A stretch of 64,000 nt of DNA from Patescibacteria group bacterium (GTDB taxonomy: Bacteria; Patescibacteriota; WWE3; UBA101185; 2-01-FULL-41-18), in assembly GCA_038064575.1 (NCBI GenBank), contig JBBTST010000003.1:6751-70750 (forward strand). Direction: 5' to 3'. The first letter of the stretch is position 1, and each line of letters begins with the position of its first letter. The notes below the pieces were generated by a model. That model was not told the DNA's origin. It saw only the letters and a list, made by a program, of their open reading frames with translations, and made no database searches. A program made the translations under genes and the position numbers. This document shows, piece after piece, positions 29,991-32,991 of the stretch.

Positions 29991-30289
29991 TGGGATAGAG
30001 TTTCTGCAATAAGTTTGAGGTCGGAGAGACTTAATCTGTCCTCCTGAACAAGAAATCCTGCTTCGTTTGTAAAAACTTCCTTCTTTGGAAAATTCTCTTT
30101 ACGTAGATGACTTTCAAACATAGCTTAACTACAATACTTATAAATCCCCTTGGCTATACATTCTTATTTTTCTAATAGATTGTTTTTCAGCGTTTTTGTA
30201 AAACCGAGCTGATCTAATGTTATTGATTGATTACCTGCTTATTGGTTGGGGGTTTCAATACACCTAACCTCAGATGTGTATTGGTGTCT

Positions 30290-30331
30290 GGAAACTAAAA
30301 AGATGCTATGTGGCACTTGCTTACATAGCAT
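30290..30331 (-). terminator. putative intrinsic terminator for the minus-strand two-gene unit
   Basis: 9-bp perfect stem ATGCTATGT/ACATAGCAT followed on the minus strand by CTTTTTAG, about 35 nt after the stop at 30366. Confidence 0.4.
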
Positions 30332-30365
30332 CCTTTGCTGGAACCCTTGGTTTAGACTGACGTCA

Positions 30366-30641
30366 TTATTCTCGTGTGTCGTTGGGGTCGCACACGTCAA
30401 GCAGTCCCTGGTTATCTTTAAGACCGAAGCCGATCTTCAGGTCTTCCCTCTTCCTCAAAGGGATTTGGTGCATCTCTCCGCCAAGCATAACGGCAATGAA
30501 AGTGTTTCCGCCGATGTCAGCTGTTGGATGGACCATAACCTCGTTTGGAGGGTAACCCTTTTCTTCGAACGCCTCAAGGACTGCCTGGCGGGCAGATTCG
30601 ATAACATCGCCTTCGATAGTAAATGGTTGTGTGATATACAT
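30366..30641 (-). CDS. hypothetical protein (91 aa), GC-rich islet
   Basis: ORF in a segment of roughly 50 percent GC. No motif recognised. Confidence 0.35.
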   Translation of the reverse strand: MYITQPFTIEGDVIESARQAVLEAFEEKGYPPNEVMVHPTADIGGNTFIAVMLGGEMHQIPLRKREDLKIGFGLKDNQGLLDVCDPNDTRE

Positions 30642-30683
30642 TAGACTCTCCTTTTGATTTTGAAAGTGATAAAGACTTTATGT

Positions 30684-31043
30684 CTACCACCTTGGTTTTA
30701 GCAACGTCTTTCCTCTACCATCCAAATCACCGATGAAAACCTCCACTTCAAACTCTCCATCAAAGGTGTCCCAGATGATTTGTGCAACAGCGCGCGTTAC
30801 TTTCTCTCTCGCCTCGAAGGCGTCGGGTGTGTCAAAGAACATCCCCGTGTCCAGCCTGCAGTAGATCGTGTTGTCTTGCTCAGCATCTGGATCGCCAAGA
30901 AGGTCCTTTACGAAGAAAGGCCGAACTATTTTAGGTGAAACATCCATAGCCTCGGCAACGGCAGTAATAAGCTCTGCCCGCATTTTCCTGAGTACTTCCT
31001 TTGGAGTACCCTCAGGTAAACCAAAAAGATTTGGGAACGGCAT
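30684..31043 (-). CDS. hypothetical protein, possible tautomerase-superfamily (MIF-like) fold
   Basis: Begins Met-Pro (Pro1 is the tautomerase catalytic residue). 119 aa, about twice the 60-aa beta-alpha-beta unit. GC-rich. Weak inference. Confidence 0.3.
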   Translation of the reverse strand: MPFPNLFGLPEGTPKEVLRKMRAELITAVAEAMDVSPKIVRPFFVKDLLGDPDAEQDNTIYCRLDTGMFFDTPDAFEAREKVTRAVAQIIWDTFDGEFEVEVFIGDLDGRGKTLLKPRW

Positions 31044-31274
31044 TGCTCTCTCCTATTGAGCTAATTAGATTCCGATAGGTGAAAGTATTCTACTTCAAAG
31101 TAACAACCATGCAAGTGTACTTTAATTGATGCTCTTAGGTTGAAGTTTAATTGCGTACGATTCGCTTGTTTATAAAAAAGGTACCTAGACTTAATGAAAA
31201 AAGCGAAGCCTTTATGTCCTAGCGACCCCGAACACCGCGGTTTAGTTGTGGGGGACCTTTAACCCCTTCTTTTT

Positions 31275-31292
31275 CGTATCATATATGATACG
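31275..31292. promoter_or_regulatory. perfect 18-bp palindrome CGTATCATATATGATACG upstream of fic, putative operator
   Basis: Seen directly. Ends 11 nt before the fic ATG. The Fic protein has an N-terminal wHTH. Confidence 0.45.
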
Positions 31293-31302
31293 ATTATTTA
31301 TA

Positions 31303-32361
31303 ATGAGTGGTACGAATATAAACACAAGGCAGGAAAAAATACTCTTACTTTTGGTAGAAAATCTGCCTAAATCCCGTAGTGATATAAAAAAGACTTTGTT
31401 TGCGGAGGAGGAGGTTTCCAGAATTACTTTGATTAGGGATTTGAATGAACTCGTTGATTTGGGTTTTGTTTATTCTGAGGGTAGTGGTAGAAATGTGGTG
31501 TATGGTGTTACCGACAAATATGCTCTTCTTTATCCAGTAGGCATTGATAAATATTATTCTGCCGAATCTGATGAGAGGGTTTTAAAAATCCCATCATTTA
31601 ATTTTGAGATATTTAAAATTCTAAATGGTATTTTGAGTGAATCAGAAAGGAAGCTGTTTGAGTTTGGCAAGAAAAAGTTATCCGATAGCTTTTCAACTTT
31701 GGATGCAACAATAATACGAAGAGAGTTGGAAAGATTTATGATTGAACTAAGTTGGAAGTCCTCCCAAATAGAAGGTAATACCTACACGTTGTTGGAAACA
31801 GAGGAGCTAATAAAAAATAAAAAGGAAGCTGAGGGCCACGAAAAAGCAGAAGCAATAATGATTCTAAACCATAAGAAGGCCTTTGATACCATTTTGGAAC
31901 ATAGAGACGAATATAAGCAAATATCATTGCGAGATCTAAATACACTTCATTCAGTTTTGATTGAAGGACTGGACGTAACACCCGGAATAAGAAAACATAA
32001 AGTGGGTATCACAGGAACAAAGTATACGCCGCTGGATAACGAGCATCAGATACAAGAGGTTTTAGAAAAACTTTTTGAGTTGCTTGATACTGTCAGTTTT
32101 GTACCGGAAGCGGCTTTAATATTGTTGGCTATGCTCTCATACATCCAACCATTTGCAGACGGAAATAAAAGAACTGCCAGAATGGTAAGCAACGCACTTT
32201 TGATAGCAAACGGATATTTCCCACTTTCTTATAGAAGTGTAAATGAGGTGGAGTTTAAAAAAGCATTATTATTGTTTTATGAACAAAACAACTTATATCA
32301 CTTAAAACGGATATTTATAACACAGCAGGAATTTGCTATAAACAATTATTTTAGAAGCTAG
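31303..32361 (+). CDS. fic: Fic/Doc family protein with N-terminal winged-helix domain
   Basis: Fic core motif HPFADGNKRTAR (HxFx[DE]GN[GK]R), and putative inhibitory motif SSQIEG upstream. Start taken at ATG 31303 (MSGTNINTRQEKIL…), since the track start was TTG at 31246. Confidence 0.8.
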   Translation: MSGTNINTRQEKILLLLVENLPKSRSDIKKTLFAEEEVSRITLIRDLNELVDLGFVYSEGSGRNVVYGVTDKYALLYPVGIDKYYSAESDERVLKIPSFNFEIFKILNGILSESERKLFEFGKKKLSDSFSTLDATIIRRELERFMIELSWKSSQIEGNTYTLLETEELIKNKKEAEGHEKAEAIMILNHKKAFDTILEHRDEYKQISLRDLNTLHSVLIEGLDVTPGIRKHKVGITGTKYTPLDNEHQIQEVLEKLFELLDTVSFVPEAALILLAMLSYIQPFADGNKRTARMVSNALLIANGYFPLSYRSVNEVEFKKALLLFYEQNNLYHLKRIFITQQEFAINNYFRS

Positions 32362-32601
32362 CTTTCTTCAGGGTTTAGCAATGCTAACCTAAACTTAACG
32401 GCCCTTCATTACTTTTTTCTTCTGAGAAATTTGTTGGAAAAACAGTACAGTAAGGATTACATCTTGATAAAAACCACAAACTTATTTATTCCAAACATAT
32501 AAAATTTAAAAGTGGAATGGGCGTACCAAAGGACCTTTTTAAATCGAACCTTTATAGGTTTTGAGGTAAGTTAACTGCCAATTAAACGCGTTCTGATCTT
32601 T

Positions 32602-32991
32602 TGGTGGAGATGGGGGGAGTTGAACCCCCGTCTTAACAGGTTGTGAGAAAAAGGTTTACAAGCGTATCCGGCAAATAATCAAAGGCGGCCTGTCCGGAAC
32701 AAACCGATTAGTCCTTAATATAGATAGTAAGTTTTTGAAGCTTTTTGCCCTTGGATCTGTGCTCCTATCAATACACAAACCCGCATCCTAATTTTTATAA
32801 AGCCTAAAGCACCTCACTTAGGAAAGAGGTGCAAAGACTTTGTCTAAAATTAATTAAACAAAAGCACCAACAAGAGCCGGTGCGTCAACATATTCATTGT
32901 CAACATTTATCTTTGCTAATTTTAACAAGAACTTTAGCAAACTTGGCTTGCCCTCTAAACACAACGCTGCTAATCAAAGCCTGTCATCCCC
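32602..32991 (-). ncRNA. ssrA: tmRNA (ssrA)
   Basis: 5' GGGGATG pairs with 3' CATCTCC-ACCA (G3-U wobble Ala identity). 3' T-arm GGGGGTTCAACTCCCCC is near-identical to the canonical tmRNA T-arm. Immediately downstream of smpB on the same strand. About 390 nt. Confidence 0.8.

Follow-up and report, generated by a model that had tools for sequence, protein, structure and literature searches.

The 3' side of the transfer-messenger RNA (tmRNA) gene, ssrA, is a frequent integration site of genomic islands (PMC11915505; PMC3146451). Does a short run of unusual genes in that position mark an island that has lost its integrase, or is it better understood in another way? The question is raised by a 64,000-nt stretch of contig JBBTST010000003.1 (assembly GCA_038064575.1; this whole stretch is hereafter "the window") from a Patescibacteria group bacterium. 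Lineage-specific genes start there 240 nt past the CCA of the tmRNA, i.e., directly downstream of ssrA, and a first-pass annotation of the DNA proposed a decayed island at this place. In this report, we argue that the 5.0 kb between ssrA and a gene for a PIG-L family deacetylase (about 27.63-32.60 kb) are, on balance, best regarded as a lineage-specific plasticity zone that combines a two-gene operon, probably gained by horizontal transfer, with a self-contained Fic module and several open reading frames (ORFs) without a significant family match (ORFans). The window is 100% identical to a 115-kb contig from the Hainich groundwater metagenome (ERZ1292633), and the 119-aa protein encoded by the operon carries the NCBI label "Patescibacteria group bacterium", a metagenome-assembled genome.

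Gene order around ssrA

The zone begins at a break in gene order. Three genomes served for comparison, namely L025 (GCA_964636285.1), L026 and L027/L028; they encode the SmpB proteins nearest to that of the window outside this species. Identity to these SmpB orthologues is only 58-60%, and each orthologue is followed directly by ssrA. The upstream block (T4SS_pilin - SpoIID - 499 aa - bPH_2-like - DUF5657 - 590 aa - smpB - ssrA) is conserved in L025-L028. Right after ssrA the order breaks, and the downstream genes differ completely in each relative. Indeed, none of the window's genes between ssrA and the PIG-L gene has a homologue downstream of ssrA in these genomes (phmmer --max, E <= 10). 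The comparison that the first-pass annotation had proposed thus found the genes absent from this locus in all three relatives, distant as these are.

A homologue of the PIG-L deacetylase (46% identical, same orientation) is found in L025 4.4 kb past ssrA, as against 5.0 kb in the window. The seven genes that L025 carries between ssrA and PIG-L share nothing with the window's eight. This arrangement suggests that smpB-ssrA...PIG-L was an ancestral frame whose interior could be replaced, with the PIG-L gene as the probable far boundary of the variable part. The conserved Patescibacteria block itself spans 33566-41331 in the window and has been kept despite protein identities of only 40-60%.

The features of the locus, from smpB to the PIG-L gene, are these:

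33035-33490, minus strand: smpB, encoding the SsrA-binding protein (Pfam SmpB); directly upstream of ssrA and the end of the conserved syntenic block
32602-32991, minus strand: ssrA, the tmRNA gene (ARAGORN; Rfam RF00023, 124.5 bits, full length), with its 3' end (CCA) at 32602
32362-32601: spacer (240 nt) between the 3' end of ssrA and the stop codon of the Fic gene
31303-32361, plus strand: Fic-domain gene (Pfam Fic, 2.2e-12), convergent on ssrA
31274-31293: palindrome of 20 nt (repeat search)
31044-31273: intergenic region from which the Fic gene and the operon diverge (sequence reading)
30684-31043, minus strand: gene for the 119-aa predicted tautomerase-superfamily protein, first in the GC-rich operon
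30366-30641, minus strand: gene for the 91-aa protein, second in the operon
30298-30336, minus strand: terminator-like hairpin (repeat search and sequence reading)
29933-30121, minus strand: ORFan of 62 aa (gene calls, in some assemblies only)
29328-29936, plus strand: ORFan of 202 aa with a hydrophobic N-terminal segment and an Ala/Glu-rich stretch (gene calls)
28787-29122, plus strand: ORFan of 111 aa (gene calls)
28337-28609, minus strand: ORFan of 90 aa (gene calls)
27807-28100, plus strand: hydrophobic ORFan of 97 aa (124 aa if from 27726), the final gene of the variable segment (gene calls)
26880-27626, minus strand: PIG-L family deacetylase gene (Pfam PIG-L, 7e-28)

The tag peptide encoded by ssrA is VDNEYVDAPALVGAFV. 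Past the CCA of the tmRNA, the first ~12 nt (32590-32601, AAAGATCAGAAC) are kept in register in L026 (11/12; 10816-10827) and L025 (9/12; 10854-10865), genomes in which SmpB is only ~60% identical. This trailer might act as a signal in processing or in termination. Beyond ~12 nt, alignments across three lineages showed no significant conservation, and the remaining spacer is unique. Across the whole 240-nt spacer, RNA structure does not exceed what chance would give (z = 0.48), and no credible small ORF is present, including any for a small antitoxin. At the other end of the zone, the five ORFans (27.7-30.1 kb) have no significant family match in Pfam, PHROGs, NCBIfam or PADLOC, and tblastn revealed no match to the 202-aa ORFan in phage records. 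The interval 27.5-32.6 kb holds no notable tandem repeats and no notable weak Rfam matches.

Base composition and codon usage

The stretch at 30.3-31.1 kb had been described as about 50% GC. It is GC-rich, at 46.9% for 30300-31100 versus a window mean of 39.5% (standard deviation 3.1% in 800-nt windows; z = 2.4), a level reached by only 1.2% of 800-nt windows in the whole stretch; the figure of 50% holds only for the two small ORFs themselves (49.6% and 48.9%). The excess sits at codon position 3. The GC content at this position (GC3) is 0.54 in the 91-aa gene (z = 3.0) and 0.51 in the 119-aa gene (z = 2.4), versus 0.36 +/- 0.06 in the host, and the synonymous-codon likelihood scores of the two genes lie at z = -3.1 and -2.7. 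By GC3 and codon score, then, the two small genes look foreign, as an island would predict, but the Fic gene does not: its composition is host-like (34.9% GC, GC3 0.34, z = -0.3). A milder rise to 43.6% GC spans 27.7-31.1 kb, across the five ORFans, which are themselves mildly raised (z about 1). The eight genes of the variable segment are therefore two strong outliers, five mildly raised genes and one native-like gene.

Equally GC-rich stretches occur elsewhere in the window, at 41.5-46.5 and 49.5-51.5 kb. They lie mostly in large genes (41753-44848, 45818-48655, 48764-50050 and 50656-53328) with an excess at codon positions 1 and 2 and with GC3 of 0.32-0.35, near the host mean. The only GC3-rich ORF in these 41-52 kb stretches encodes 126 aa without a Pfam match (50146-50526, minus strand; GC3 0.54, codon-usage z = -2.9). 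At 22623-23184, two very hydrophobic ORFs (89 and 79 aa; GC3 ~0.54) are as deviant as the islet beside ssrA. They, too, lie directly 3' of a tRNA gene, that for tRNA-Arg (23266-23341, minus strand); no repeat of the 3' end of this gene was found within 4.9 kb.

The two-gene operon

Two Shine-Dalgarno sites, a gap of 42 nt between the genes and a terminator hairpin identify the GC-rich stretch as one bicistronic minus-strand operon of ~0.75 kb (about 30.30-31.06 kb). The Shine-Dalgarno sites are strong and stand in near-identical context (TCAAnAGGAGAG...AATG), with AGGAGAG before the 119-aa gene. The hairpin at 30298-30336 has 14-nt arms that are 93% complementary and an 11-nt loop, and is followed by a T run; judged by this make-up, it is an intrinsic-terminator-like end of the operon. 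A 259-nt intergenic region separates the operon from the divergent Fic gene. Promoters are presumed to lie within 31044-31273, where a consensus scan returned weak sites only. No flanking repeats, neither target-site duplications nor terminal inverted repeats, exceed chance around the operon. The first-pass annotation had its feature start at 30246, a coordinate taken from a plus-strand ORF (30246-30644) that we reject as a gene; it is a Cys/Trp-rich antisense artefact, the two true genes being on the opposite, minus strand.

Neither of the two small proteins has a Pfam match, and one of them begins with Met-Pro, as had been noted. This 119-aa protein (MPF...) has no match in Pfam (E <= 0.1), PHROGs or NCBIfam, and an exhaustive profile search among 1.84 billion proteins recovered only 79 cluster representatives of its family. 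Met1-Pro2 is nearly invariant in the family (Pro2 in 50 of 54 aligned members), and R22, D47, T66 and V100-E101 are the other conserved positions of the 54-member alignment. When compared with PDB sequences, the family profile matched only proteins of the 4-oxalocrotonate tautomerase (4-OT) type. The best natural match was Alr4568 (4lkb/9c4l; E = 2e-3), over its full length and with Pro1 aligned. Further, 4 of 54 relatives match PF01361 weakly (best 7e-4). The AlphaFold2 model (predicted local distance difference test score 96.7) shows two beta-alpha-beta units in an E-H-E-H-E pattern. Its top 50 Foldseek matches in the PDB are tautomerase-superfamily or 4-OT-fold structures, plus two structures without known function, at template-modeling (TM) scores of about 0.6; they include fused 4-OT, MIF, CHMI, MSAD, Cg10062 (cis-CaaD-type) and designed cages on the 4-OT fold. 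Family profile and predicted fold thus support the earlier suggestion of a tautomerase-like protein, namely a tautomerase-superfamily member with a fused double beta-alpha-beta architecture and a conserved Pro1.

Methionine aminopeptidase specificity leads one to expect removal of Met before Pro, and Pro1 would be exposed in the 119-aa protein in this manner. The catalytic role of Pro1 is established in the tautomerase superfamily (PMC5818174), and by analogy the 119-aa protein may be an enzyme. It resembles the fused 4-OT-type proteins (Alr4568, PDB 4lkb/9c4l; native fused 4-OT, 6blm; MIF) in its length of ~120 aa, its tandem beta-alpha-beta units, its N-terminal proline and its predicted fold (Foldseek probability 1.0, TM about 0.6). 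It differs from them in that identities are 11-18% and no Pfam tautomerase model is matched at threshold. Its polar set R22, D47, T66 and E101 also does not correspond to the catalytic residues of characterised tautomerase families. A further difference is that some family members bear an additional domain: several relatives (P0060, P0062, P0066, P0077 and P0097) are fused to a conserved C-terminal domain of ~130 aa, which ends in ...VCFPPYxxGRFEN and has neither a Pfam match nor a match in the window.

The 91-aa protein belongs to a very rare and patchy family (7 clusters) and has no Pfam match. The best structural matches of its model, by two programs, are to the AroH-class chorismate mutase and YjgF/RidA fold. 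We tentatively assign it a fold of the YjgF/AroH chorismate-mutase-like kind; like those proteins, it would be a small alpha+beta protein.

Elsewhere, genes of this family are found near mobile elements. The homologue in L011, a genome of ~50% GC, is 1.7 kb from an IS3-type transposase gene (IS, insertion sequence); those in L015 and L016 are 0.3 kb from an IS200/Y1 transposase gene; and the one in L150 is 65 nt from an IS21 element. The C-terminus of the L150 protein is unlike the rest of the family, possibly as a result of the IS21 insertion. In L011, the gene's GC3 (0.62) is the same as that of the host (0.62-0.65). It is foreign in two other hosts, the window (0.54 vs 0.36) and L015 (0.57 vs 0.28). 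Because the gene is compositionally native in L011 and deviant in the window and L015, the pattern points to transfer from ~50% GC donors into low-GC hosts. Viral and plasmid collections offered no parallel: homologues of the 119-aa and 91-aa proteins were found neither in IMG/VR nor by tblastn in phage and plasmid records.

Could the operon instead be an old, vertically inherited part of the chromosome, whose relatives have diverged or been rearranged and whose GC3 reflects a gene-specific bias such as high expression? The segment contains no mobility genes, as would be expected of native DNA, and the 119-aa homologues in L029 and L030 are also slightly GC-richer than their flanks. But members of the 91-aa family are very rare and patchily distributed; the gene fits only a ~50% GC host, and in two hosts of low GC, next to transposases, it deviates strongly. 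Its GC3 excess affects both G3 and C3, not only C-ending pyrimidine codons, and no homologue of the zone's genes is present at the locus of any relative. We therefore find native descent unlikely, to about the same degree as a decayed island (see below).

Several observations nonetheless weigh against an acquired operon in a plasticity zone, and some of them favour native descent. High GC3 in short genes is not unique to the operon: the small ORFs 22623-22892, 22945-23184 and 50146-50526 show similar values (~0.54), so part of the signal could be gene-specific bias. The relatives are distant (SmpB 58-60%, the 590-aa neighbour 40-43%), and the break at ssrA may go back to an old rearrangement and not to turnover at a hotspot; because of this distance, lost gene order is no proof of insertion. 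When genome contigs were scanned with SmpB, the matches were confined to distant phyla (Omnitrophota, Nitrospirae, Polaromonas), with no close relative among them. The orthology of the PIG-L gene is based on one genome and 46% identity. Finally, no donor was found in which the 119-aa gene accompanies the 91-aa gene. Two cases of the 119-aa family outside the window were available, and neither shows linkage to the 91-aa family; the neighbour is an unrelated 100-aa gene in L029 and another, different gene in L030.

The Fic gene and its palindrome

The native-like gene nearest to ssrA ends at 32361, and its distance to the tmRNA 3' end is exactly the 240 nt given by the first-pass annotation. Its product has 352 aa when read from the ATG at 31303; a start at 31285, chosen by other gene callers, makes it 358 aa, and the first TTG is at 31246. 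PF02661 matches it with 48.1 bits (cut-off 24). The protein aligns with FICD-type AMPylators and is class-II-like, with an inhibitory motif, SSQIEGN, of the SxxxEG type. The class II Fic AMPylators (FICD/HYPE) serve here as the comparison system (PMC12249575). The active-site motif, QPFADGNKRTAR (near residue 288 of 352), aligns to HPFTDGNGRTAR of FICD; the canonical form is HPFxDGNGRxxR, and the general motif of the Fic/Fido family is HxFx(D/E)GNGRxxR. Gln replaces the catalytic His, and the second Gly is changed to Lys, which turns GNG into a Doc-like GNK. A homologue in L011 (47% identical) carries the same changes. These changes suggest a Gln-for-His Fic subfamily without canonical AMPylation. 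The PADLOC SoFic model matches the protein (E 1.2e-23, model positions 54-218 of 361), and the NCBIfam SoFic equivalog scores 18.5 bits, far under its cut-off of 550. The protein shares the Fic fold, the inhibitory-helix-like SxxxEG motif and a life as a single-gene module of variable regions with SoFic and class II AMPylators. It departs from them in its Gln for the catalytic His, its GNKR as in Doc, the absence of a small antitoxin-like ORF downstream and a conserved palindrome at its start codon. No relatives of the gene were found in IMG/VR, and phage records yielded distant prophage Fic genes only.

The palindrome, a perfect one of 20 nt (TCGTATCATA|TATGATACGA; TCGTATCATATATGATACGA palindrome), is located 9 nt ahead of the Fic start codon. 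L011, an unrelated genome, has the same site at the corresponding place before its Fic homologue (11995-12021), with 25 of 27 nt identical. The palindrome probably serves either as an operator, which would be bound by a probable N-terminal winged helix-turn-helix of the Fic protein itself, or as a 5' hairpin.

In L011, the Fic homologue is GC-poor relative to its host (GC3 0.43 vs 0.63) and lies 2.4 kb from the 91-aa homologue. It forms part of a low-GC3 block (9970-13078; 129 aa, 293 aa and Fic; GC3 0.39-0.47, host 0.62-0.65) that adjoins the native-like 91-aa homologue and is 2.4 kb from the IS3-type transposase gene, a mirror image of the compositional pattern in the window.

The two genomes therefore show a two-way pattern: the 91-aa gene is native in the ~50% GC host and foreign here, and the Fic module is the reverse. 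In both, the 91-aa and Fic genes are <3 kb apart. This reciprocity hints at two-way traffic between lineages. One might go further and picture the interval next to ssrA as an integrase-free exchange hotspot at which small cassettes are swapped between Patescibacteria lineages of differing GC, with the tautomerase/YjgF pair perhaps a two-step module. 2-Aminomuconate deaminase acts with 4-oxalocrotonate tautomerase, and by analogy the 119-aa and 91-aa proteins could together handle enamine/imine or enol-keto intermediates. We regard this whole reading as quite improbable.

Tests for an integrase-mediated island

The proposal of the first-pass annotation was a site-specific integration at the 3' end of ssrA, followed by loss of the integrase and of the distal attachment (att) repeat. 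It draws on the location directly 3' of ssrA, on content that is missing from the loci of relatives, on two genes with foreign codon usage and on a Fic gene whose homologue in L011 is compositionally foreign to its host. The zone also resembles known ssrA islands (Dehalococcoides, PMC3146451; more generally, PMC11915505) in that accessory, lineage-specific DNA lies directly 3' of the tmRNA gene, in its broken gene order and in its partly atypical composition. It differs from them in being very small (5 kb), with a strongly deviant part of just 0.75 kb.

A partial direct repeat of the tmRNA 3' end, the test put forward by the first-pass annotation, was sought in three ways, all negative. There was no match with <=3 mismatches in 28 nt. 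Ungapped scans with 16-40-mers over 12 kb downstream did not rise above shuffled controls, except for the T-arm of tRNA-Arg (23266-23305), which we reject as an att site on the grounds of tRNA-like similarity. A covariance-model search with Infernal, at a permissive E-value and over 20 kb, detected no tmRNA fragments in 12000-32601. The absence of an integrase, already noted by the first reading, is confirmed: Pfam identifies no integrase or transposase domain in any ORF of 23.4-32.4 kb, and PHROGs, NCBIfam and PADLOC identify no recombinase among the ORFs of 27.7-32.4 kb. No intergenic gap exceeds 260 nt, too short for a sizeable integrase remnant.

The arrangement of the segment also argues against an island. 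The gene proximal to ssrA, in the usual place of an integration module, is the compositionally native Fic gene, and the segment is a compositional mosaic rather than one block. Downstream of ssrA in the three relatives, there is likewise no integrase and no ssrA fragment or repeat. Of the three classical features, two were tested and found absent, and a decayed island is therefore unlikely; apart from its position it has left no positive signature.

Continuity of the assembly

A break in gene order at a conserved RNA gene might also be produced by joining the contigs of two organisms. The last ~31 nt of the tmRNA (32602-32633) are identical across very diverse metagenome taxa (marine, gut, sediment) and between the window and L027. 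Because this word is shared so widely, a k=31 assembly graph must branch there, and the Logan k=31 contigs of one run do break at the tmRNA 3' end (32604 and 32631). We thus reject these breaks as an att-site polymorphism; they are a k-mer effect of the shared 31-nt word. In a scan of metagenome contigs with the 31-mer, no locus had a trailer like that of the window. A chimera at this word is very remote, however. Two ENA assemblies of replicate samples and Logan contigs of two further runs cross the junction with the same sequence (L001, L002, L005, L010); the 31-nt word does not reach the length of a read; and codon usage in the Fic gene, as in the genes past 27.6 kb, is the same as in the block upstream of ssrA. 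For other studies of this kind, the lesson is that k=31 contig breaks at the tmRNA 3' end can mimic att-site polymorphism.

Discussion

We return to the reading that we favour, a lineage-specific plasticity zone with an acquired operon. The zone would be a three-part mosaic at a gene-order break beside the tmRNA gene. Its first part would be the self-contained Fic module, host-like in composition and with a conserved palindrome as its own putative operator. The second, the 0.75-kb operon with foreign codon usage, was most likely gained horizontally from a Patescibacteria-like donor of ~50% GC. The third part would comprise the five small ORFans with mildly raised GC. We infer that such a mosaic would have arisen as genes were gained and lost piece by piece through illegitimate or flank-homology recombination, perhaps aided by IS elements such as those found near homologues elsewhere. 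No single integrase-mediated insertion into the 3' end of ssrA is invoked.

That DNA beside tmRNA genes is variable is textbook knowledge; the locus described herein would add an example from a lineage that has been little sampled. With no recombinase present, it counsels caution against naming "islands" from position and GC alone. The analysis also proposes folds for two ORFan families, namely an unmodelled small subfamily of Pro1 tautomerases and, tentatively, the very rare 91-aa family. Further, it brings to light a Fic subfamily with Gln for the catalytic His and a conserved palindrome at the start codon. For the organism itself, the implication is that a tiny, streamlined groundwater Patescibacteria genome would still keep a plasticity zone at ssrA, and one with a probable recent horizontal gain.

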